From contig JAZNNZ010000108.1 in assembly GCA_045580525.1 (NCBI GenBank), forward strand, positions 1-30,665: a stretch of DNA of 30,665 nt, written 5' to 3'. The position numbers and the translations under genes are program-made. Shown here in pieces: positions 9,938 through 30,665 of this stretch. The DNA is from Acutalibacteraceae bacterium (lineage in GTDB: Bacteria > Bacillota > Clostridia > Oscillospirales > Acutalibacteraceae). The notes below the pieces were generated by a model that worked only from the letters and a program-made list of their open reading frames with translations, searched no databases and was not told the origin of the DNA. The number at the start of each line of letters is the position of its first letter. Position 1 is the first letter of the stretch.

Positions 9938-10509
9938 ATTTTTAATTCCTCTAATTTTTCTTTAAATTTAATTAGTGCGTTACCGCGATGACTTACGCTG
10001 TCTTTATCTTTACCCGATAATTCACCAAAACAACCTATTGGTGTAATAAACAGCGGGTCATAGCCAAAACCGTTTTCACCGTTTTCAGAAAAAGCAATTT
10101 TCCCTTCACAGGTGCCGCGCACCGTAAAGCTAACATTTTCATCTATATAAGCAATTGTACATACAAAACGCGCGGTGCGGTCTTCGTCCTTTACGTTTTC
10201 TAAATTTTTAAGAAGTTTTTTGTTATTGGCTTTATCATCGCCATCTATTCCGGCATATCTTGCGGAATATACACCCGGCTCTCCGCCTAACGCATCAACC
10301 TCCAAACCGCTATCGTCTGCAACAGAAGGAAGTCCCGTTGTTTTAAACGCGCTTTGTGCTTTTAGTAAGGCGTTTTCACTAAAGGTGGCGCCGGTTTCTT
10401 CAACCTCGGGTAAATCGGCAGTTATAAGCTCAATACCCATAGGCTCTAAAATTCTTTTAAATTCTTCTATTTTGTGTTTGTTGTGGGTTGCAATTACTAC
10501 TTTTTTCAT
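9931..10509 (-). CDS. rdgB: Non-canonical purine NTP pyrophosphatase (RdgB/HAM1)
   Basis: ATHNKHK, EETGATFSENA..KA, ADDSGL, PGVYSARY, GFGYDPLF, SHRG. Confidence 0.96.
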   Translation of the reverse strand: MKKVVIATHNKHKIEEFKRILEPMGIELITADLPEVEETGATFSENALLKAQSAFKTTGLPSVADDSGLEVDALGGEPGVYSARYAGIDGDDKANNKKLLKNLENVKDEDRTARFVCTIAYIDENVSFTVRGTCEGKIAFSENGENGFGYDPLFITPIGCFGELSGKDKDSVSHRGNALIKFKEKLEELKIC

Positions 10510-10521
10510 ATGATTTCCTTT

Positions 10522-11424
10522 TTAAAACAGGCTGTCTGCAAATTCTTTATAATTAAATGGTTGCAGATCATCAATGCCTTCGCCTACGCCGATATATTTA
10601 ATGGGCAGGTTAAGCTCATTTTTAACCGAAAGCAATGCGCCACCCTTTGCGGTGCCGTCAAGCTTTGTAACAATAATGCCTGTAACCTTAGTAACGCGAG
10701 AAAATTCTCTTGCTTGGTTAACCGCATTTTGTCCGGTGGTACCGTCAAGCACTAAAAGAACTTCGTAATCATCATATCCTAATTCTCTTGTGGCAACACG
10801 ACCGATTTTTTCAAGTTCGTCCATAAGATTTTTCTTATTATGAAGTCTTCCTGCGGTATCACAAATTATTACGTCGGCATTTCGAGCTTTACCGGCTGAA
10901 ATTGTATCGTATACAACCGATGCAGGATCGGTGCCTTCTACTGATTTTATTAGGGGACAATCGGCTCTGTTAGCCCAAACCTCAAGCTGTTCAATTGCGG
11001 CGGCGCGAAATGTATCAGCAGCCCCTAAAATAACCTTTTTGCCGCTATTTTTAAGCATTGATGCCATTTTGCCAATGGTTGTGGTTTTACCCGCGCCATT
11101 AACACCAATAACAAGTATTAAAGACGGTTTTTGGTTTAGTCTTAGTTCTGCTTCACCACAAAGAAGTTCGGCTACCGTTTCTTTAAGAAGGTCTTTAACC
11201 TCTTCAGGCTCGGTTACGCGCTTATCTTTTACCTTTTCTTTTGTGATTTCGCAAATTTTCATTGCAGTAGCCGCGCCAACGTCACACATAATAAGGCTTT
11301 CTTCAAGCTCTTCAAAAAGCTCTTCATCTATTTTATGAAAGCTTTTTAAAACGTTGTCTACACTACTTGCTATGGCTTCTCTGGTTTTTGTAAGCCCAGC
11401 TTTAATTTTACCGAAAAATCCCAT
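10522..11424 (-). CDS. ftsY: Signal recognition particle receptor FtsY (NG domain only)
   Basis: GVNGAGKTTT, DTFRAAA, DTAGR, TKLDGTAKGG, GVGE..DDL. Confidence 0.98.
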   Translation of the reverse strand: MGFFGKIKAGLTKTREAIASSVDNVLKSFHKIDEELFEELEESLIMCDVGAATAMKICEITKEKVKDKRVTEPEEVKDLLKETVAELLCGEAELRLNQKPSLILVIGVNGAGKTTTIGKMASMLKNSGKKVILGAADTFRAAAIEQLEVWANRADCPLIKSVEGTDPASVVYDTISAGKARNADVIICDTAGRLHNKKNLMDELEKIGRVATRELGYDDYEVLLVLDGTTGQNAVNQAREFSRVTKVTGIIVTKLDGTAKGGALLSVKNELNLPIKYIGVGEGIDDLQPFNYKEFADSLF

Positions 11425-11444
11425 AATAAATCCTTTTGTTTGAA

Positions 11445-14400
11445 TTATAAAGTTTTAAGTTGTTTTTCAAGTTCAGATACGTTTAGTTCAATTAACTTAC
11501 TAACACCTTTTTCTTGCATTGTTACACCGTAAAGCATATCAGCATTTTCCATTGTACCTCTGCGGTGGGTAATACAAATAAACTGTGTTGGAAGGTGGCT
11601 TGATTTAATATATCTTGCAAAACGCTCAACGTTAATATCGTCAAGGGCCGATTCAACCTCATCCAAAAAGCAGAATGGCGGAGCATTAACTTCCATAATT
11701 GCAAAATAAATTGAAATTGCAATAAGCGCCTTTTCACCACCCGAAAGAACGTCAAGTGAAGGAACCTTTTTACCGGGTAAGAGCGCTACAATATCAATAC
11801 CGCTGGTTAATGGCTCTTCAGGGTTAGAAAGCTTTAGTTCTGCGTGGCCGCCGCCAAACATAATTCCAAAGGTTTTTGTAAAGTTTTCACCAATCTTCTT
11901 AAAGCCCTCCAAGAACATTTCTTGCATTTGCTTTTGTAAATCGGCAATAAGCTTTAATAGTTCTGCCTTTGAATTTTCAACGTCGGCAATCTGACCGCTT
12001 AAGAATTCATATCTTTCGCTAACTTCTTTATATTCGTCAATAGCGGCAACATTTACGCTGCCAAGTGATTTAATTTTTGAACGAATTTCTTGTAAACGCT
12101 TTTTGGCTTCACCAATATTTTCAATCTTTATTCCAAGATTTTCTGCATCGGTTTTGGTTAGCTCATATTCATCATAAAGTTTTGCAACAATTTCATCAAG
12201 CTCATTAAGCATAACGTCTTTACGCTCGTTAAGTCTTGCAATTTCACCCGATGCCTTTTCTTTATCGGCTAAAAGTTCTTTTTGCTTTTGACGTAAAGTT
12301 ATGTTACTGCTTTCTAAACCATTACGCTTAATTACTAAATCTTCGCTTGTGCTTAAGTAGGTTGTACCCTGTGTTTTGGTTGAAAGAATATCGTTTTTAT
12401 ATTCTTCAATCTTTGCTTCAATTTCTGCATTTTTAGCTTCAAGCTCATTTATTTCAGCTTCTAAAATCGCTTTTTGACGGTTGGCTTCTTCTTCGCCTAA
12501 AGATAAGTCTGCAATAAATTTATCAAGCACAGAAATATCTTTTTCAAGCTCTGCCGCACGTAAGCGGTGGTCGGTCAGCTTTTCGCCAAGAGTGGTGCGA
12601 AGCTCTGCATTATCGTCGCCTTCTGAAAATGCGGTATTTTCGTTAATTTCATTTTGCTTTTCTTCGCATTGTTTAATAAGAAGTCTTGCATTTTCTGCGG
12701 CGGTTTTAAGCGAAGCAATACGACTCTCTGCGGTATTCTTTTCTTCTTCTGCAGAACTAATTTGTGCCTTTAGATTTTCTAAAAGCTCGTTAACCCTTTT
12801 TAGTTCACCAAGTACACGAATTTTATCTTCTTTGTAGGTTAACGCAGAAGATTCATAATTTAAAATATTTGCATCAATTTCTGCAAGTGCCTGTGCGGCA
12901 GTTTGTAAAGCAGCCTTTTTGTCTTCGGCTTCTTTTTGCAGCTTATCTGCTTTTTGCTTTAGCTTTTCAATATCATCCTTACGAGATAGTGCGCCGCTGC
13001 TTTTGTTAACAGAACCACCGGTTAATGAACCGCCGGGGTTTACAACCTGACCATCTAAAGATACGCATTTAAATTTATAGTTATATTTTTTAGCCAAGGT
13101 TACTGCAGAATCAAGATCTTCTGTAATAACAGTACGGGCAAGTAGCCATTTAAACACGTTATCATAACGATTATCGTAAGAAATAAGCTCACTGGCTTTG
13201 CCAATATAACCGTAGTTATCATCTAAATTATCTTCAACCAAAAGGGTTGGATGAAGTGATTCAATAGGTAAAAAGGTTGCGCGGCCAAGACGTTTTTCTT
13301 TAAGATAAGAAATTGCGCGTTTTGCGTCTGCGTCTTTTGAAACAATAATGTTACTTGCCGCCGCTCCCAAAGCTACTTCAATAGCGGTAGCATATTTGCT
13401 ATCAACCTGAATAAGCTTTGAAACCACACCTTCAATTCCTTGTAGTCTGCGATTATCTTTAGCAAGTAAAATTTCTTTAACAGCAAAAGAAAAGCCTTCT
13501 AAATTCTTATCTAATTCTGTTAGCATTTCTGCGCGACGAATTGCATCGGTAGCTTTGTTTTCAATCTCTGCAATTTCAGCATTGATTTTTTCTACCGCCG
13601 ATGCCCTTGTTTCACGCTTAATTTTATAACCCTTAACAGAGTTTTCAATACCCGCAATTTCGGCTTCAATATTATCTAAATCTGTGTTTAATAAAGCAAA
13701 TTCTTTTTTAAGCTCTTGCTCTTCTGCTTTTAACTTTAAGATTTTTTCTTTAAAGGTGTCTTTGTTTTGTTCAATTTCACCCGCAGCAGAAACCGCGCCC
13801 GAAAGCACCGCTCTTTGCTCACTGATTTTAATGGCAAGTTCGTTTAATCTTAAAGAAACGCTTTCTTTTTGCTTTAATACATTTTCACTTTTTAGTGTTA
13901 AAGATGAAAGTTCAAGCGTTAAATCTTTTTCTTCAGCTAAACAAGCATCTAATTCTTTTTTAAGCTCCTGCTTTTGCAGGTTATGCTCGTTAATTTTTTC
14001 ATCTGCAGAAATATTTGAAAGATTTAGCCTTTCACTATCTTCTTTTATTCTGTTAATGTTTTCTTGATTATATAAAAGGGTGGTTTTTAAAACGTTAATA
14101 TCACCTTCTATACGGGTTACGCGCTGATCGGTTTCACCTGCGTCTACACGAAGGGTATCAATCTTTGCGGTAAGCTCGTTAAAAAGTGTGCTGTTTTCAT
14201 CTAAATTATTTTCTATTTCTTCAATCTGACGATTAAATTCATTATATTGCTCTGTTGCTGCGGCAATTTTATTTTCTTGCTTACGAAGTGTTTCTTTAGA
14301 CTCATCTAAAGTATGTAACCAAACGCCAATTTCAAGCTCCTTCTTTTGAGCCGATAAATCTAAAAATTCGGTTGCGGCTTCACTTTGAGCTTTAAGCGGT

Positions 14401-21053: not shown

Positions 21054-21881
21054 TTATTCTATACTTTGACTAACAATTTCATACCTACCCATTGGCGCTT
21101 TTTTAATTACACCCTTTATGGTAAGCGTGAACAAAGCCATAGTAAGTTCATCTTCTTCTAATTCACAATTATTTAATATGCTGTCATATTCCATTATATA
21201 ATCAGTGAAGGTATTATACACCTTTACCGCATTACTTGGCAAGTTAATTTTTAAGGGCGGCAATTTAAACGACTGGTTATCGAATAAAAATACCGTTTGC
21301 TTATTTATACTTTTAGCATATTCTAAAATCTTGTTGCTTCGGCTGTTATCTTTAATTTCAGAAAACACCAAAATATCGCAAAGCTTAACTAAAAGCTCGT
21401 TTTTAAATTTAAAATATTCTTTTTTGCTTGGTGTGCCGGGGTAAAACTCTGATATTGCATTAGTGTTTGCATCAAAATTACCGTCATACATAACCATTAC
21501 TGCGCTTTTAGCGTATTTAGCGGTTAATTCTTCGGTTTCACCCTTATCGCCGCATATAACGGTGTTTTCGGTTAAATTTAAAGCCTTTACAAAGCCTTCA
21601 AGCTTAAGCGCGGTTTTTTCGTCAATATTACTTGGTCCCGCAAAACCGAATATTTTACCTTTAAATTTTACGTCGCCCTTAATATAAAGCACGGGCGGTA
21701 GATCTTTGCGACGGGTAAGGTGTATTTTTACACCCTTTTCTTTACATATATTAATAATTTCTTCTGCTTTTTTATAGGTTTCTTCACAAAAGTCGGTATT
21801 AAACTCTTTTTCAATATCTAACCCCGTTTTGTTAAAGCCTTTCTTTATGGTTACGTAAACCGCCTTTAAAAGCTCACTCAT
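21054..21881 (-). CDS. dprA: Divergent DprA/Smf-like protein
   Basis: Position upstream of topA; PPVLYIKG, ISEFYPGT, C-terminal winged helix (L..L..KG.I....G.Y). Most core motifs are degenerate. Confidence 0.7.
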   Translation of the reverse strand: MSELLKAVYVTIKKGFNKTGLDIEKEFNTDFCEETYKKAEEIINICKEKGVKIHLTRRKDLPPVLYIKGDVKFKGKIFGFAGPSNIDEKTALKLEGFVKALNLTENTVICGDKGETEELTAKYAKSAVMVMYDGNFDANTNAISEFYPGTPSKKEYFKFKNELLVKLCDILVFSEIKDNSRSNKILEYAKSINKQTVFLFDNQSFKLPPLKINLPSNAVKVYNTFTDYIMEYDSILNNCELEEDELTMALFTLTIKGVIKKAPMGRYEIVSQSIE

Positions 21882-24035: not shown

Positions 24036-24068
24036 ATAAAAAACGACCGCACAGATTTTGTGCGGTCG
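24036..24068 (-). terminator. Intrinsic terminator ending the carbohydrate ABC cluster
   Basis: CGACCGCACA/TGTGCGGTCG 10-bp stem followed by a T6 tract on the minus strand. Confidence 0.88.
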
Positions 24069-24087: not shown

Positions 24088-25512
24088 TTATCTTGCGTTT
24101 TTAAGTTGAGAATTTGCTCTCTTTACGCTGCTTGGGAAACGAGATTTATATTTGTTAATAATAGTTGTTTGTTGTGCAGGAGCTGCACCGGCTAGGTCAT
24201 CACAGAAATTCTTGTATTCACCAGCTGTGCTGTAATCCATAACACCACTTGTAACTAAAACTTGTTTCTTTGCAGTTTTGCTTGTAACAATATTATAAAC
24301 TTCTTTGAATTGAGTATTGTAGAAGGTCTTATCCATATCGCAGTTAGCAGGATCTAAGAAATATCTTAAGAAGTATGCAGCAGCTGCTGGGTTTTTAGCA
24401 CCCTTTGCAACGCCCCAAACCTTAGGACGAACAGGTGTGTATGCAGTACCGCCTGCAGGACCGGGAACGGGAACAGCCTTTAATGCACCAACGCCGCCTT
24501 TTGTGGTAACGTTATCAAACCAGCCGCCTTCGTTATATAGACCGAAAGCAATAGCGCTGAAAATACCGGTAGTACCGTTGGAAATACCTTGTGGGTTCCA
24601 GGTTTTAACTAGGTTATCAGCCATTAATGTTGAAACTTCGTTCCAAGCTGCTGTGATGGTCTTTGTTTTGTTTGCATCGTCTAGGTTGTTAGAGAATTCT
24701 TTGCCGTTATATGATAAGAAGTCAACACCGCTACTTAACATATATAGGTCATAAGATTGTAGGCTCATACCGGAATAGTTAGAACCTTTTTTGGAAACTG
24801 CAGTTGCAATATTCTTTGCTTCTGTCCAGTTCCATTTACCCTGTTTGTATAGGGTGTAAGGATCAGATAAACCAGCTAGAGTGTTGGGGTTATAGTATGT
24901 AACGTAGTTACAGTCTTCTGTTGCCCAAGCACCGTTGATTGCAACAGCAAAGTATTTGCCGTTTACAGAGTAAGAATCCATATAAGGTTTGTACCAAATG
25001 GGATCTGCTAGCTTAAAGGTTGTATCCTTTAAAGATTGTAGTGCTTTTACTACAAAGCCCGGGAAGTCGTCTGAGTTAAAGCAAACAACGTCGGGAGAGT
25101 CTTTACCGGAAATTAAAGATGTTAGCTTTGTTGCATACTCAGCTTCGGTAGTAACTGTAGTTCTGATTTTAATACCGGTTTTCTTTTGGAAAGAATCTAC
25201 TAAAGCTTTTTCTGTGGGTGTATATTGACGCCACATAATAACGTGTAGATTTGAACCGCCAAATTGTTCTTTTGCTGCTGCAACGTAGTCAGCCTCAAAA
25301 GTTGTGCTGCCAGAGTCACCTGCGTTGCCGCCCTGTTGGCCACCTTGTTGACCACCTTGTTGGCCGCCTTGTTGAGTGTCGTCGCCACCAACATTGCCAA
25401 CATCGCTACCTGTGCCGGCAGGGTTATTGCCACAAGCAGTAAACACCATTGTTAAAGCAAGCAACAAGCAAAGAACAACGCTGATTTTTTTAGCAATTTC
25501 TAATGCTTTCAT
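24088..25512 (-). CDS. Family-1 extracellular solute-binding lipoprotein (carbohydrate ABC)
   Basis: Signal peptide with lipobox FTAC (Cys27), low-complexity linker, F.KKTGIKI...KL...I.G.DSPDV, DPYTLYKQGKWNW; RBS GGAGG. Confidence 0.9.
   Translation of the reverse strand: MKALEIAKKISVVLCLLLALTMVFTACGNNPAGTGSDVGNVGGDDTQQGGQQGGQQGGQQGGNAGDSGSTTFEADYVAAAKEQFGGSNLHVIMWRQYTPTEKALVDSFQKKTGIKIRTTVTTEAEYATKLTSLISGKDSPDVVCFNSDDFPGFVVKALQSLKDTTFKLADPIWYKPYMDSYSVNGKYFAVAINGAWATEDCNYVTYYNPNTLAGLSDPYTLYKQGKWNWTEAKNIATAVSKKGSNYSGMSLQSYDLYMLSSGVDFLSYNGKEFSNNLDDANKTKTITAAWNEVSTLMADNLVKTWNPQGISNGTTGIFSAIAFGLYNEGGWFDNVTTKGGVGALKAVPVPGPAGGTAYTPVRPKVWGVAKGAKNPAAAAYFLRYFLDPANCDMDKTFYNTQFKEVYNIVTSKTAKKQVLVTSGVMDYSTAGEYKNFCDDLAGAAPAQQTTIINKYKSRFPSSVKRANSQLKNAR
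25327..25374 (-). repeat. 4 x 12-bp tandem repeat encoding (QQGG)4
   Basis: Plus strand GCCGCCCTGTTG/GCCACCTTGTTG/ACCACCTTGTTG/GCCGCCTTGTTG. Confidence 0.95.
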
Positions 25513-25578
25513 TGTGTTTTTTCCTCCAATTTTATATTTATAAAATACTGTATTTAATACAATTTTTATACTAATATT

Positions 25579-26574
25579 TTAACCTACAATACCTACTCTG
25601 TCAACACTTTGAATGAATTTCTTCTGCATGAAGATAAACATGATTAAGACAGGTAAAATGTAAAGTAAGCAGGCAGCAGATGTTGGACCTGCCGCAGAGT
25701 CAAAAGCAAGACCTTGAGTCTCTAAAACGCTACCAATACCCGCTAATGCTACAGATAGTGGGAAGTCTGTCTGGAAGTATAAAACAGATAGGTAATATTC
25801 GTTCCAGTGCCAGATTATTGAGAATATTGTAACGGTTGTAAATACAACGCCGGAAGAAGGAATAATAACGCTTAAGAAGGTCTTAATGGGACCCGCGCCA
25901 TCAATATAAGCGGCTTCTTCCAATTCTTTAGGTAAGCCTAAGAAGAACTGACGGTAAATAAAGATAAATATACCCGAACGAAGACCTACTGCAAAAAGTG
26001 ATGGCAGATAGAAAGTAAGGGGTGTATTTGTTACGTCAATAACAAACTCGGGGTTACCAAAAAGTCCACCGATAAGGTTTGTAAGTCCAAAGAAATCCAT
26101 AAACCTGAAGTTAAGATATAACGGAATAGATAAAACCTGTACGGGAACAATTGCGGTTAAAAGCACAAGACCAAACAATACGCCTTGACCTTTAAACTTA
26201 AATCTTGCAAAGCCATAGGCTACTACCGCGCAAGAGAAAACCTCTATCATAGCGGAAACTATGCCAACAATAAGTGTTTGAGACAGACCGTTAAGGTAAT
26301 CAAGAGAATTCCATGCCACCTCTAGATTATATGTAGTAGGATGACGGGCAATCCAGATAACGCTTGGGTCTAAAATATCACCGTGTGACATAAGTGTATA
26401 GGCAATCATTGCAAACAAAGGATAAACAATAATGTAACCTACAGAAATTAAGAACACTAAACGAACAATTGTAACCAAAACGTCTTTAACCTTGTTTTGA
26501 ACCTTATTACGATTAAGTCTTTTAACAGCTTCGCTTTGCTCGGGAATAACAATTTTTGTATTTTCTTGTGTCAT
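25579..26574 (-). CDS. Carbohydrate ABC permease (MalG/CUT1-type)
   Basis: AYGFARFKFKG, EAA loop GLPKELEEAAYIDGAG..KTF, WHWNEYY, FIQSVDRVGIVG. Confidence 0.94.
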   Translation of the reverse strand: MTQENTKIVIPEQSEAVKRLNRNKVQNKVKDVLVTIVRLVFLISVGYIIVYPLFAMIAYTLMSHGDILDPSVIWIARHPTTYNLEVAWNSLDYLNGLSQTLIVGIVSAMIEVFSCAVVAYGFARFKFKGQGVLFGLVLLTAIVPVQVLSIPLYLNFRFMDFFGLTNLIGGLFGNPEFVIDVTNTPLTFYLPSLFAVGLRSGIFIFIYRQFFLGLPKELEEAAYIDGAGPIKTFLSVIIPSSGVVFTTVTIFSIIWHWNEYYLSVLYFQTDFPLSVALAGIGSVLETQGLAFDSAAGPTSAACLLYILPVLIMFIFMQKKFIQSVDRVGIVG

Positions 26575-26588
26575 CTTTTGTTACCCCC

Positions 26589-27530
26589 CTAATTCCATTT
26601 TTTAAGCAATAATTGGTTATATAGGAATATAACCGCGCCTATAACAACGCCTATTATTGCGAAGAATACCCATAACATTGCGGCACTCATATCGTAAACC
26701 ATATTGCTCATTAAATTGTATGCCTGCTTTAATACGGGGTTTGTGTTTTGTGTTAATAATTCAATAATAGTAAATACTATAACAAGTAATATTGTATTAC
26801 CTAACATTGGAAGGGTAATGTACCAGAATTCTTCCCATTTTGTAGCACCCTCTACGTGTGAAGCCTCGTAAAGTGATTCAGGAATTGTTTGAAGACCTGA
26901 AATAAACAAAATTACGGGAATACCGCAGGACCAAAGGGTGTTAAAAATGTTGGTAATAAGCTTGGTCATTTCGTTGGTAATGTCTTCGGGTAATTGCAGA
27001 TTTTGCAAAATAGCCGAGAAGTCCATACCACCGCCGCCACCTTCGGTGTAAACGTTGCTGGTTTCACTTGTTACTTGAACAATAGCGCCAACACCACCGT
27101 AAGTAGCTGTTAATTTTTCCATAACAACGCCGGTTGCAATAATAACTGGCAAGAAGAAAATTGCTCTAAAGAATACTCTGCCCTTAAACTTTTGATTTAA
27201 TACCAACGCCAAAATTAACGATACAACAACAATAATAGGTAATGAACGGAAGAATTCACCCAAAGCTGCTGAAAGGTTTTTGGTGTAGTCAGGGTCTATG
27301 TTAAGTATTTCATTATAATGAGCCAAGCCTGCAGGCTCAGTCATCATCATACCGGGTTCAACAAAAACATAGCTGAAGGAGTAAATTAAGGACTGTACTA
27401 GTGGTACGAAGAAGAATAGCAACATACCAACAAGCCAAGGAGAAATAAACATCCAGCCATATAAGCTCTTTTTAGATTCAATGCCTCTAACGTGCTTTTT
27501 ATCTAACTTTTTTAAGAAAGCTTTGTCCAT
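26589..27530 (-). CDS. Carbohydrate ABC permease (MalF/CUT1-type)
   Basis: FISPWLVG..FF..PL..SL.YSF, FRAIFFLPVII, EAA loop IPESLYEASHVEGATKWEEFWYITLP. Confidence 0.94.
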   Translation of the reverse strand: MDKAFLKKLDKKHVRGIESKKSLYGWMFISPWLVGMLLFFFVPLVQSLIYSFSYVFVEPGMMMTEPAGLAHYNEILNIDPDYTKNLSAALGEFFRSLPIIVVVSLILALVLNQKFKGRVFFRAIFFLPVIIATGVVMEKLTATYGGVGAIVQVTSETSNVYTEGGGGGMDFSAILQNLQLPEDITNEMTKLITNIFNTLWSCGIPVILFISGLQTIPESLYEASHVEGATKWEEFWYITLPMLGNTILLVIVFTIIELLTQNTNPVLKQAYNLMSNMVYDMSAAMLWVFFAIIGVVIGAVIFLYNQLLLKKWN

Positions 27531-27543
27531 TTTTACCCCTCCT

Positions 27544-29823
27544 TTACAAAACTTTGAAATCTAATGCAGGAATTGTAACGTTTTCAACAACAGCGGTCTT
27601 ATCTGTAAAGTTTACATATACTGTTTTGCCGTTATCGAACTCTGTTTTTGTAACGTTTTCTGCTAATGTTGTGTGGTTTTTAATCTTTGCAGAAGCAACG
27701 CTTTGTAAGAAGGCGCCGCCTTCATCTAAATATTCTTTAATATAGCCTTTATTATCACTATATAAAGAAGAAGCAAAGATGTTATCATATTGTTTTCTTA
27801 ACTCAATATCGTAGTTATTCATTAATATAAATGAAATACCACTACCCGATTCAATTGCCTTTAAGAATGCCACACGTCTATCAGCAGCATAGTTAATTGG
27901 CTGAATATAGTTTTCTTTATAACCTTGGAAAACTATCTGATATAACGGAACGTCAACATCAAAGGCTCTGTCGTTATTTGAGTTAATTGGACAGCCTGTT
28001 AGCACGTCGCTCTCAACTGCTGCATAGCTAAATGCGCTGTCAACTAAAACCTTATTGTTTTTAGATTGTACTTCTGCAATATATTCTTTAACGTCGCTTG
28101 GCATATTCTTGCGGCTGGTATGTGCATGGTCATCATTATAGTCCGCATATGAGATACTTCCAAGTGTGTTAAATGCTATATTCGAAATATCATATTTTGC
28201 AGCGGTTTCTGCCGCTTTTATAACTGCGTTTTTAAGCTCTTTTCTTGCAATTAAAACGCCTATTCTGCCGCCATCGGATTCTTCAATACGATTACGGGTA
28301 GAAATCATAAATTGTCTAACCTTAACGTTAATACCGGTATTGTTTATTGCGGCATCTCCGTTTTTAGAAAAACCTGCGCCCGATTTTGAGAAGTTAATAA
28401 CGTCAAAATTAAAGTATGCTTCAATACCGTTATCACTTGCAAATTTAACAAATTCGCCCAGCTCATTCTTATTTCCGGTTACGCCCGTAAGCTTAAAGCC
28501 ACCGGCAAGTTTTGAAGCATTTACGCCGCCTTCACCAAAACCGAACATTGTAGCAGAAAGACTGCCGCCGGTTGCATCCTTTAATTCAGAAAGAATTGTG
28601 GTTGCTTGTGCATAGGTTGTAAGAGCTTCTGCCTTTTTATATGGGAAGCCTAAGAATAGTTCATCCTTTAAATAGCTTCCTAAAATTGTAGCATTTAAAA
28701 GCTTGTTTGAACCGGTAACAGAAAGGCCTTCTTTTTCTACAAGGTATTTTTGATAACGCTTGGCTATACCGTAATAGTTAGCATCATCACCTTGTAATGC
28801 ATAATAACCAATAACAATTGGCTCTACGTCGTTAATTTCTTCGGTATATTTATTTCTCCAAATACCCTGTAAATATGCAACGTCGTGTCCACGAACGTCA
28901 ATATAAGCATAGGCTTCAGATACACCGTATTTGCTTTCACCGGCATCTGCTTTAATTGTAGCAAATTCGGCTCCGCTTTCAATAATACCTACGGTTGCGC
29001 TGTTACCTTCTTTAGCGCCAAAGAATGGCATACTGATTGAACTGTTGTTATCAGCATCCTGGTATTTATCAATAGCCCAATCTTCACCGTAAACAGGAGC
29101 AGAAATTGAACGAATAGCACCTGACGAACGCTGGTCTGCATACATAAGTGCACCCGAGCCCGACGGAATAACTAAATAAGAATCTTTGCTTCCGCTTTCG
29201 GTATTTTTAACCGAGCACATAAATGGTGTAATACCAATTGATACAATTTGGTTTTCACTGGCTTCAACTATTTTCTTGGGATCAACCTTAACCTTTACGG
29301 AATCACCTTCTAGGTAGTAATCAACCGTAATAGAGAAGTAGTATTCATCAAAATAGTATGTAACCGAAACACCATTGTCAATTTCTTTTGCGCCTATACG
29401 ACCTAACGTTGAAACCGAACCGCCAACGTTAATGTCTGTAGGCTTAGAATTTAGTGCGAACTGAACCGTTAAGGGAGAATTGATTAATTCATGAACCTTT
29501 TGGGTTTCGTTTAGTTCGTAATAATCATTGGGGTTTGTGCCCCATTTTTTACCGTCTTTTTTGCTAACTAATACAACAGAAGACTGTTCATTGTTCCAGC
29601 CAAGTGTATAGAAATCGTTTTCGGCAATTTTTTCATTGGTGGCAAGTTCATCTACAACGCCGCCAACCTCATAAATTGAAGTGTCATATTCATCGGCTTT
29701 TTCGAATTGTGAACCCCAAACGCCATCGGCCTGGTCTTCGTCCTTCTTTTTACAGCCTGTAAATGCAGTAGCAAGTAAGCAAATTGCCAAAATAAGACTT
29801 AAAAATTTAATATATTTCTTCAT
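27544..29823 (-). CDS. DUF5696-like large lipoprotein of unknown function
   Basis: Lipobox FTGC (Cys24); YLVIPSGSGALM, VYGEDWA, SMPFFG, GYYALQG.DANYYGIAKRYQ.YL, VPLYQIVFQGY, FLKAIESG patterns recalled for DUF5696; typical position between a Yip1 gene and permeases. Confidence 0.75.
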   Translation of the reverse strand: MKKYIKFLSLILAICLLATAFTGCKKKDEDQADGVWGSQFEKADEYDTSIYEVGGVVDELATNEKIAENDFYTLGWNNEQSSVVLVSKKDGKKWGTNPNDYYELNETQKVHELINSPLTVQFALNSKPTDINVGGSVSTLGRIGAKEIDNGVSVTYYFDEYYFSITVDYYLEGDSVKVKVDPKKIVEASENQIVSIGITPFMCSVKNTESGSKDSYLVIPSGSGALMYADQRSSGAIRSISAPVYGEDWAIDKYQDADNNSSISMPFFGAKEGNSATVGIIESGAEFATIKADAGESKYGVSEAYAYIDVRGHDVAYLQGIWRNKYTEEINDVEPIVIGYYALQGDDANYYGIAKRYQKYLVEKEGLSVTGSNKLLNATILGSYLKDELFLGFPYKKAEALTTYAQATTILSELKDATGGSLSATMFGFGEGGVNASKLAGGFKLTGVTGNKNELGEFVKFASDNGIEAYFNFDVINFSKSGAGFSKNGDAAINNTGINVKVRQFMISTRNRIEESDGGRIGVLIARKELKNAVIKAAETAAKYDISNIAFNTLGSISYADYNDDHAHTSRKNMPSDVKEYIAEVQSKNNKVLVDSAFSYAAVESDVLTGCPINSNNDRAFDVDVPLYQIVFQGYKENYIQPINYAADRRVAFLKAIESGSGISFILMNNYDIELRKQYDNIFASSLYSDNKGYIKEYLDEGGAFLQSVASAKIKNHTTLAENVTKTEFDNGKTVYVNFTDKTAVVENVTIPALDFKVL

Positions 29824-29834
29824 TTACTTACCTC

Positions 29835-30665
29835 CTACCTATATCTAATTTCTTGAATGATGGTGCCAATAAAGGTAATCATCTGAGTAATCAGAATACC
29901 AACCATAAAGGCAACGAATACTACAACCGCCATTGCAAGTACTGTAATAATCATAATACCAACGAATTTCAGCATTCCAAATTCGTGAACTTCCATCATA
30001 CCAACACACAAAATTATAATGCTTAATGCTAGACAAACAACGTTTACAACCGTTAAAATTAAGCCTTCTTCGGGGGTAAATACGTTTGAGAATATAGCGT
30101 AGAACACATTAAAAATAACCTGTGGTAAGAAGGCATAACAAGTGGTAATATAAACCTCTTTAAAGGTACCCTTGCCTTCAAATAACGTTGCCATACCCCA
30201 GTTTGCTATTGAGAAGAGCAATATTAAACCTACTGTCATAACAAAGGTATAGGTTGCATTGTATGTACTCTTGTTAAATAGCACGTGCATAAAGCCCGAA
30301 TACATATCCATAGCTAAAGTAGATACAAAGTATAGCACCATAACTATAGTAGCAAGAAGTATTGAACCTTGCTTTTGATATTTAATGGCTTTAAACGAAT
30401 CAAACGGGTGCAGCATTGTGCCGAACATCACCCTTGTGGGTTCGTGTTTAATAAGTGTTAATTTCTTCTTTCTTGAAATAACAAGTAAAGCAATTAATCC
30501 ACCAACTAAAACTGCGGCTACAATAAATATTAATACGAAGTTTTTACTTAGCCAGTCGTTTCTAACAAAGGTAAAGGCATTTGCATATGTTTTTTGATCA
30601 AAACCGTTTCTTGCATATTCCATAGCGGCTTCATAATTGCCTTCAATGTAAGCAGCCTTTGCAAG
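29835..30665 (-). CDS. TPR + Yip1-domain membrane protein, C-terminal part (frame open to window edge)
   Basis: Frame is open from 30665 (LAKAAYIEGNYEAAMEYARNG..., TPR-like), then one TM, HPFDSFKAIKYQKQGS and ~5 TM segments with Yip1-like FKEVYITTCYAFLP. Confidence 0.75.
   Translation of the reverse strand, partial: LAKAAYIEGNYEAAMEYARNGFDQKTYANAFTFVRNDWLSKNFVLIFIVAAVLVGGLIALLVISRKKKLTLIKHEPTRVMFGTMLHPFDSFKAIKYQKQGSILLATIVMVLYFVSTLAMDMYSGFMHVLFNKSTYNATYTFVMTVGLILLFSIANWGMATLFEGKGTFKEVYITTCYAFLPQVIFNVFYAIFSNVFTPEEGLILTVVNVVCLALSIIILCVGMMEVHEFGMLKFVGIMIITVLAMAVVVFVAFMVGILITQMITFIGTIIQEIRYR

Follow-up and report, generated by a model that had tools for sequence, protein, structure and literature searches.

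An eight-gene twin CUT1 importer cassette with an NHL/Yip1 membrane protein and a glycosidase-fold DUF5696 lipoprotein in an Acutalibacteraceae bacterium

The window analysed here is the complete contig C108 (30,665 nt) of a metagenome-assembled genome (MAG) of an Acutalibacteraceae bacterium. Near one end it carries five minus-strand open reading frames (ORFs) in a row (24088-30665) that encode, in this order, a Yip1-domain membrane protein, a DUF5696 lipoprotein, two permeases with EAA loops (P3 and P4) and a lipoprotein solute-binding protein (SBP2). We found that these five genes are, with near certainty, the back half of an eight-gene cassette encoding a twin CUT1 ATP-binding cassette (ABC) importer, whose order is giant SBP1-P1-P2-NHL/TPR-like/Yip1-DUF5696-P3-P4-SBP2 and which is split in the MAG between contigs C142 and C108. 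CUT1 importers and the transport cores of Gram-positive polysaccharide utilisation loci (PULs) are known already; what is uncharacterised here are the two dedicated accessory proteins, that is the NHL/Yip1 membrane protein and the DUF5696 lipoprotein.

No stop separates the ORF at 29835-30665 from the contig end, where it is open at the 5' side and begins inside a TPR-like helix. Its product corresponds to residues 448-723 of a 723-aa orthologue in a related genome (L015:7292-9463; 91% identity), while residues 1-443 of the same orthologue correspond to an NHL-repeat ORF that runs off contig C142 (85% identity), such that the gap between the two contigs amounts to four codons (~11 nt). On C142 (6.8 kb) the NHL-repeat ORF shares its strand with a 970-aa SBP1 (C142:3204-6113) and two permeases. 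Two relatives, whose DUF5696 proteins are 84% and 72% identical to that of the window, carry the eight genes intact as SBP(960)-P(312)-P(299)-NHL/Yip1(723-726)-DUF5696(759)-P(313-326)-P(331)-SBP(472-473) and have, downstream of it, the infC...topA neighbourhood that the window shows as well. A sequence-only reading of the window had noted that such blocks often follow a larger binding protein, a second permease pair and an NHL-repeat domain, and all of these are indeed present on C142 and in every syntenic relative. Carbohydrate-active enzymes (CAZymes) and a regulator, which it had also proposed to look for past position 30665, were absent from the flanks of the cassette in this genus. A second, paralogous front half (P-P-NHL/TPR/Yip1) runs off both ends of another contig (C119:1-3419, locus L110); its propeller is 35% and its permeases are 61-62% identical to those on C142, and its presence probably explains the assembly breaks. 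The DUF5696-P3-P4-SBP2 half of this second copy was not found in the assembly.

To determine how widely this gene order is conserved, we compared 59 related loci (30-72% identity), which were retrieved only by way of two DUF5696 peptide motifs, and found the order SBP1-P1-P2-NHL/Yip1-DUF5696-P3-P4(-SBP2) in 59/59, wherever the contig allows, with P4 always adjoining P3; DUF5696 was present in 18/18 genomes of the same genus. In an even sample of the phylum (301 genomes), DUF5696 occurred in 21 genomes, and the NHL/TPR/Yip1 profile reached E < 1e-80 in exactly the same 21, the matches elsewhere being weak and generic to NHL. The P3 profile likewise scored at least 262 bits only in these 21 genomes, the next best score being 165 bits. 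The genes for NHL/Yip1, DUF5696, P3 and P4 were adjacent in 20/20 regions from this survey (17 genomes, 8 GTDB families), with NHL and Yip1 either fused or split into an NHL protein of ~500 aa and a Yip1 protein of ~210 aa; SBP1-P1-P2 was missing from some of these regions and shifted downstream in others. Related genomes are non-independent samples, and the co-occurrence pattern nonetheless spans many families. These comparisons show that the invariant core of the cassette is NHL/Yip1-DUF5696-P3-P4, i.e. its back half, and, as judged from profile scores, that P3 represents a dedicated clade of CUT1 permeases restricted to the neighbourhood of DUF5696. In one related locus (L065, ~10000-12260) the DUF5696 gene is read as two ORFs (352 and 397 aa), which is likely a frameshift, a pseudogene or an assembly error.

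The same survey bears on the simplest alternative, namely that two ordinary, independent CUT1 importers merely share a transcript with a pair of surface proteins unrelated to them. The annotation published for the cassette of Caldicellulosiruptor (Anaerocellum) bescii is of this kind, listing two separate transporters, a hypothetical protein and a GH129 (PMC8579813). We consider such mere co-location very improbable in view of the exclusive co-occurrence of the signature genes (21/21 genomes versus 0/280), the invariance of their adjacency and order down to ~20% DUF5696 identity, a gene spacing that resembles translational coupling and the dedicated P3 clade. Among the outcomes that would overturn it, the sequence-only reading had named DUF5696 and Yip1 genes that occur independently, yet in the sampled phylum the two are confined to identical genomes and always adjacent, and the neighbourhood analysis that it had suggested returned one and the same arrangement at the level of related loci, of the phylum and, as described below, of the paralogues within a single genome (20/20).

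The DUF5696 protein aligns with PF18952 over profile positions 5-612 of 612 (416.3 bits versus a cut-off of 25.6) and begins with a lipobox, confirming that an extra 759-aa lipoprotein accompanies the normal CUT1 set. A full-text literature search returned no match for DUF5696 or PF18952. An AlphaFold2 model (53-sequence alignment; mean predicted local distance difference test, pLDDT, 90.4) predicts a beta-sandwich, a (beta/alpha)8 barrel and a second beta-sandwich, as in GH129 and GH101 enzymes. Foldseek placed ZgGH129 first (5opq, E 6e-33, template modelling (TM) scores 0.61/0.69), ahead of NagBb (5wzn, E 2.5e-25) and then GH101, GH36 and GH31 structures, and a family profile run against PDB sequences recovered the same two proteins (5opq 6.5e-12, 5wzn 5e-7). 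The Pfam GH129 model (PF11308) gave no match, the Pfam scan reporting DUF5696 alone.

The catalytic positions were mapped by alignment and not by coordinates. A direct hidden Markov model (HMM) alignment of the barrel half with PDB sequences stopped short of the strands that carry the catalytic residues, whereas hhalign against three Pfam GH129 members (probability 92%) placed the Asp of their 'FIDCD' motif on Asn552 and the Glu of their 'GSEGG' motif on Asp595. The 'GFRFD' strand of the genome's own GH13 branching enzyme aligns with the same beta4 position, and a VP(L/F)Y motif common to DUF5696 and NagBb places the published NagBb pair, reportedly D435 and E478 (Sato et al. 2017), at the same two strand ends. 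For ZgGH129, the title of PDB entry 8rzk gives D486 as a catalytic residue. The Asp nucleophile after beta4 and the Glu acid/base after beta5 that define GH129 are therefore not found at these positions in the window's protein (N552 and D595). Across 73 sequences the nucleophile column reads S18/D15/R11/N10/G5 and the acid/base column D27/S13/N9/E7/T7, and both columns differ even between DUF5696 proteins that are 65-86% identical, as well as among 20 paralogues of one genome. These 20 paralogues (18-47% identical) carry Asp at the D561 position in 15/20 and at the D622 position in 7/20, so that no carboxylate pair is universal among DUF5696 proteins. From the alignments and the predicted fold we therefore slightly favour the view that DUF5696 is a glycosidase-derived binding protein, i.e. 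a pseudo-glycosidase. A weak second DUF5696 match in the genome, on contig C8 (L004:517-2502, minus strand), was rejected as a paralogue and is instead the eukaryote-type GH13 glycogen branching enzyme (661 aa), which matches PDB 7p43/4bzy (E ~2e-200) and has homologues of ~664-682 aa in 8/18 same-genus genomes searched.

The second signature protein is known in full from the orthologue in L015, whose AlphaFold model (pLDDT 82.6) starts with a cleavable signal peptide and continues with a six-bladed propeller (residues 41-405), five TPR-like helices (407-488), a transmembrane helix (490-514), a basic loop and a five-helix Yip1 domain (549-722). The part encoded in the window covers the last TPR-like helices, the single transmembrane helix, the basic linker and the five-helix membrane domain, which scores 60.6 bits with the Yip1 model (PF04893, cut-off 28.6), whereas the NHL propeller lies outside the window, on C142 and in L015 (Pfam NHL 46.6 bits). 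The description of this gene product as a TPR/Yip1 protein hence stands for the Yip1 domain, but the protein is not a short one, its 276 residues in the window being a fragment of a 723-aa protein, and TPRs had no Pfam match, the only sign of them being the five-helix stack in the orthologue model. Foldseek paired the L015 propeller with propellers of TRIM71, Thin and PknD (TM-scores 0.72-0.80 by target), and in its modelled form it resembles TRIM-NHL domains and the extracellular sensor of PknD, which are binding platforms and not enzymes. YknW, a Yip1-family protein of B. subtilis, modulates the assembly of the YknXYZ ABC transporter (PMC4887032); it was the only studied bacterial Yip1-family protein found in the literature, and a full-text search combining Yip1, NHL and ABC returned nothing relevant.

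The precedent of YknW raises the possibility that NHL/Yip1 and DUF5696 never touch the substrate and are YknW-like assembly or stability factors, or a PknD-like sensor that gates the transporter, as might also be supposed from the likeness of the propeller to PknD and TRIM-NHL platforms and from the strict 1:1 gene stoichiometry with P3-P4. The rates at which the cassette proteins change speak against this. Mean pairwise identity among 30 complete cassettes was 67% for P1 and P2, 58% for the SBP domain of SBP1, 52% for P3 and P4, 44% for NHL/Yip1, 37% for DUF5696 and 32% for SBP2, the fastest-evolving part of the cassette. DUF5696 and the propeller (37-43%) thus diverge far faster than the permeases (52-67%) and behave like substrate-facing parts, the same disparity being seen between the paralogous copies on C119 and C142. 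A glycosidase fold would moreover be odd for a pure chaperone, and neither protein has a signalling output domain, for which reasons we regard a purely assembly-related or regulatory role as improbable. Mirror-tree/partial-Mantel analysis of the 30 cassettes gave modest excess correlations of 0.40 (DUF5696-P3), 0.47 (P4-propeller) and 0.30 (DUF5696-propeller); with all raw values at 0.8-0.96, and as a test of an unreliable kind, it was given no weight.

The remaining genes of the window's half encode the regular permease and SBP set of a CUT1 importer, with two EAA-loop permeases (BPD_transp_1 each) and a cluster-1 SBP with a lipobox. SBP2 is only remotely similar to solved sugar-binding proteins (6rjy 9e-4, 5ysb 3e-3), and as a guide to its ligand the solved structures offer similarity at the family level only. 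Directly after its lipobox Cys, SBP2 has a Gly/Gln-rich tether, (GGQQ)n, at residues ~30-65 (window 25330-25430), where the relatives have a Gly/Thr- or Asp-rich linker. The lipobox Cys is present in 37/41 SBP2 and 53/57 DUF5696 proteins. SBP1 (~960 aa; loci L022-L080 and C142), on the other hand, lacks a lipobox in 43/51 cases and has a type-I signal peptide instead. Since a non-lipidated SBP1 needs a retaining partner in a Gram-positive cell, the propeller/TPR ectodomain would be a candidate for this role.

No ATPase gene was detected in the window by Pfam scan, as the sequence-only reading had noted when it proposed that a shared MsmX-like ATPase powers the importer. The genome encodes three MalK-like ATPases. 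One belongs to a conventional CUT1 operon (C56), one is PotA-like (C44), and the third is an orphan (C67:11586-12746, locus L108; 386 aa; ABC_tran, OB_MalK and TOBE_2) whose neighbourhood contains neither permease nor SBP genes. Lacking a permease neighbour, the orphan is a natural candidate for a shared MsmX/MsmK-type ATPase, and 4/5 CUT1 permease pairs in the assembly come from the two cassettes, the exception being that on C56. The C67 protein is a likely candidate for the ATPase that would energise the cassette importers. The proposed kind of gene does exist in this genome, although its assignment to the cassettes is by exclusion only.

A clue to what the cassette may transport comes from C. 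bescii, in which it heads the xylan degradation locus (XDL), listed as xloEFG-X-GH129-axoFGE-xynF... (Rodionov et al. 2021, PMC8579813). Here, Athe_0174-0176 encode an SBP and two permeases, Athe_0177 an NHL repeat protein, Athe_0178 a putative extracellular GH129 and Athe_0179-0181 two permeases and an SBP; Athe_0174-0181 are co-induced on xylan and Avicel and belong to the XynR/AraR regulons, while msmK is regulated separately and induced on oligosaccharides (PMC8579813). XynR was reported in 2025 to bind the XDL operator in vitro (PMC12285236). The published 28-nt operator-plus-flank sequence had exactly one exact match, 147 nt upstream of an SBP1-like gene in locus L090, in which the cassette HMMs match all eight genes (SBP 954 aa, 297, 287, NHL/Yip1 716, DUF5696 733, 306, 339, SBP 601) and a 1370-aa ORF follows at the position of XynF. 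With this operator and all eight genes, L090 shows that the cassette has been annotated before, and its transcription reported to be induced by xylan, in C. bescii, where its two signature proteins are annotated and have never been studied.

Links to other glycans emerge from a 3.7-Mb genome of the window's family (G020), which harbours at least 23 copies of the DUF5696 gene. The 20 that were fetched (L111-L130) all reside in cassettes, which are flanked by genes for GH38, GH16, GH36, GH78, GH130, GH1 and GH2 enzymes, GDSL esterases and AraC regulators, a multiplicity that is PUL-like. The link of the cassette to glycan use is therefore backed both by the xylan induction in C. bescii (PMC8579813) and by the diverse CAZyme neighbours in G020. 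In a set of closer Acutalibacteraceae, classical glycoside hydrolases are rare beside the cassette. Giant CBM_4_9/Flg_new_2 proteins, in which Pfam recognises no catalytic domain, account for 17/78 downstream genes there, and a divergently oriented AP_endonuc_2 gene (xylose-isomerase-like TIM barrel) for 10/95 upstream genes (L046-L057). In the window's genus neither a CAZyme nor a regulator adjoins the cassette, which lies between Metallophos_2 upstream and infC downstream. XynR/AraR control and adjacent xylanases, the hallmarks of the xylan-type locus, were not found at the window's cassette, nor was the combination of enzyme and regulator that characterises Gram-positive PULs, although it occurs around the G020 paralogues and in C. 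bescii. The statement that such blocks often lie near glycosidases consequently holds for the C. bescii xylan locus and the G020 flanks, but not for this genome or its genus. Elsewhere the genome encodes CE2/GDSL esterases that carry dockerins and a GH2 enzyme resembling beta-mannosidases, which hint at the use of plant hemicellulose. C89:4015-9891 and C4:3260-8693 (L101, L102) encode giant secreted proteins that bear dockerin type I domains, one of them with CE2_N and two GDSL esterase domains, and their domain content may point to a cellulosome-like surface display.

Taking these data together, we propose that the cassette would import oligosaccharides released from a complex glycan by way of two type-I ABC importers, P3-P4 with SBP2 and P1-P2 with SBP1, both drawing their energy in trans from the orphan MsmX-type ATPase, and that NHL/Yip1 and DUF5696 would serve the P3-P4 importer as dedicated accessory subunits on its extracytoplasmic side. 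The Yip1 domain would dock on the permeases, as YknW does in the YknWXYZ system, and hold the six-bladed propeller above the membrane, while the lipid-anchored DUF5696 protein would bind or present the glycan and pass substrate to the SBPs and permeases. As a whole, this mechanistic reading of sequence and models has in our estimation a probability of about 0.5. Among its elements, there are good grounds for functional coupling, for the import of glycans and for a shared ATPase, and capture and hand-off by the extra proteins, as the sequence-only reading had proposed, would be a plausible mechanism. A farther-reaching version, which we find tentative and rather unlikely, holds that the NHL/TPR/Yip1 protein and a pseudo-glycosidase DUF5696 are obligatory extracytoplasmic subunits of type-I ABC importers that form a class of their own, with DUF5696 as the primary receptor for long glycan chains, Yip1 built into the membrane part, the propeller docking the giant SBP1, and the whole forming a Gram-positive counterpart of SusC/D-type systems.

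Several observations weigh against the proposed mechanism. In the window's genus, where no CAZyme or regulator adjoins the cassette, the glycan link would follow from homology only, and the orphan ATPase is assigned by exclusion. Several polar residues on the catalytic face of DUF5696 are strongly conserved (D248 in 71/73 sequences, D561 in 70/73, D622 in 66/73 and N644 in 72/73), and for conservation across cassettes that serve different glycans a common chemistry, be it catalysis or a Ca2+ site, is the better fit. GH97 enzymes, relatives of this fold, catalyse with relocated residues, and as residue relocation is known in this structural clan, non-canonical catalysis is still a serious rival. 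DUF5696 would in that case be a working glycosidase, or another enzyme acting on glycans, that is tethered to the cell surface by its lipid and relies on non-canonical residues to trim or debranch oligosaccharides at the mouth of the importer, the other cassette proteins keeping the roles proposed above.

In favour of such an enzyme are the intact barrel in a GH129/GH101/GH36/GH31-like fold and a set of conserved acids in D474 (after beta3), D561 (beta4) and D622 (beta6), together with D248 from the N-domain; secondary-structure position puts D474, D561, D622 and N644 on the barrel's catalytic face, whereas two further conserved positions, E658 and N738, look structural. The 61 residues between D561 and D622 resemble the nucleophile-acid/base spacing in clan GH-D, D561 is part of a YSDY motif that aligns with the conserved YDDY Asp of Pfam GH129 members, and the canonical nucleophile position is itself an Asp in 15/73 members. 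The C. bescii authors, too, label Athe_0178 a putative extracellular GH129 (PMC8579813). This is countered by the variability of the canonical columns between close relatives and by the want of a universal pair among the 20 paralogues described above. In addition, the cassettes are tied to xylan, mannosides, rhamnosides and galactosides, all of which a single catalytic centre is unlikely to serve. Acidic residues of NagBb hold Ca2+ for sugar recognition (PMC8106489), which makes a non-catalytic reason for the conserved Asp residues available. On balance, we judge an active enzyme to be a doubtful but weighty alternative to a DUF5696 protein that binds and presents glycans.

The organisation of the operon in the window is summarised in the table below. 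Gaps of 11, 13, 14 and 66 nt separate the genes from Yip1 to SBP2, and every one of them contains a strong Shine-Dalgarno sequence of the GGAGG type, so that ORFs, Pfam matches and sequence alike corroborate the five co-directional and tightly spaced genes closed by a terminator that the sequence-only reading had described. The promoter-like site overlaps the end of the P4 gene upstream of SBP2 and its AT-rich 66-nt spacer and may, as a weak possibility, be an internal promoter that gives an extra SBP2 transcript; the number of promoter-like sites found in the region by consensus scan does not exceed that in shuffles.

Table. Features of the cassette operon in the window
Feature	Position	Strand	Evidence
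NHL/TPR-like/Yip1 gene, 3' part (last 276 codons)	29835..30665	-	Pfam Yip1 60.6 bits, 2.2e-16
DUF5696 lipoprotein, 759 aa	27544..29823	-	PF18952, 416.3 bits; lipobox LATAFTGC
Permease P3, 313 aa	26589..27530	-	BPD_transp_1; EAA loop EASHVEGATKWEEFWYITLP
Permease P4, 331 aa	25579..26574	-	BPD_transp_1 1.7e-10; EAA loop EAAYIDGAGPIKTFLSVIIP
SBP2, family-1 solute-binding lipoprotein, 474 aa	24088..25512	-	SBP_bac_8 5.7e-14; lipobox MVFTAC
Promoter-like site TTGACA-17-TAAAAT, 11/12	25576..25604	-	Consensus scan only
Intrinsic terminator closing the operon	24036..24068	-	GC-rich 10-bp stem (24068-24044) and T-run

Downstream of the terminator lies the infC-rpmI-rplT operon with a promoter-like site of its own (24025-23998), followed by genes for a SpoU methylase and a weak DprA, and by topA, trmFO, plsX, rnc and smc. 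The DprA-like ORF (window 21054-21881) is a partial match that scores 26.6 bits against a Pfam cut-off of 29.6. The MAG as a whole, of a livestock-gut bacterium, comprises 1.36 Mb in 241 contigs (~90% complete); among named genomes, MAGs of Acutalibacteraceae from the guts of animals and humans are the most closely related. Public sequencing runs that contain the window sequence are metagenomes of pig, cattle and sheep gut or manure (word share at most 0.26), and no RNA-seq run with the locus was found among the public runs searched.

Compared with the Sus paradigm of Bacteroidetes, much less is understood about the way in which Gram-positive gut and rumen bacteria retain complex glycans and deliver them to their ABC importers. 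The cassette is widespread, reaching at least 23 copies per genome beside different CAZymes, and it is retained even in a reduced genome of 1.36 Mb, while C. bescii provides a genetically tractable host with a xylan-induced copy. If the two accessory proteins are indeed transporter subunits, they would define a new ABC importer architecture in which a glycosidase fold has been recruited as a receptor, and glycan use could be better predicted from genomes.

Comparison with known systems places the parts of the cassette as follows. DUF5696 has its three-domain fold in common with GH129 (the alpha-N-acetylgalactosaminidase NagBb, 5wzn, and the 3,6-anhydro-D-galactosidase ZgGH129, 5opq) and GH101, to which its sequence is remotely yet significantly related; unlike GH129, it is lipid-anchored and always encoded in an ABC operon, does not conserve the canonical pair and has no Pfam GH129 match. 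The YknWXYZ system of B. subtilis likewise ties a Yip1-domain membrane protein to an ABC transporter, but YknXYZ, which includes a membrane fusion protein, is an exporter of the MacB type, whereas the partner in the cassette is a type-I importer, and YknW has no propeller or TPR ectodomain, unlike the cassette protein. With the Sus systems of Bacteroidetes and with Gram-positive PULs the likeness is one of analogy only, consisting of the many paralogous copies (as in G020) and of surface lipoproteins beside a transporter. No SusC or SusD homologue was found among the cassette proteins by Pfam and there is no outer membrane, so that of the earlier proposal of a Sus analogue the functional analogy is what endures; the window's copy, having no adjacent CAZyme and regulator, also falls outside the definition of a Gram-positive PUL.

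The cassette also resembles the MalEFG-type CUT1 importers (TC 3.A.1.1) of Firmicutes that share MsmX/MsmK, with which it has in common the two EAA permeases, the lipoprotein SBP and an operon that lacks an ATPase. Classical CUT1 systems, however, have no obligatory propeller/Yip1 protein and no lipoprotein with a glycoside hydrolase fold, have neither a second importer nor a non-lipidated SBP of 960 aa as a partner, and are set apart from the cassette by the separate clade to which P3 belongs. The C. bescii copy differs in that it is followed by xylanases and xylosidases under XynR/AraR control, whereas the window's copy lies beside infC without CAZyme or regulator, and identity between the two DUF5696 proteins is low. 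Like the window's operon, that of C. bescii contains no ATPase, msmK being separate from it, and its xloEFG-NHL-GH129-axoFGE cluster consists of the same eight genes in the same order on one strand.

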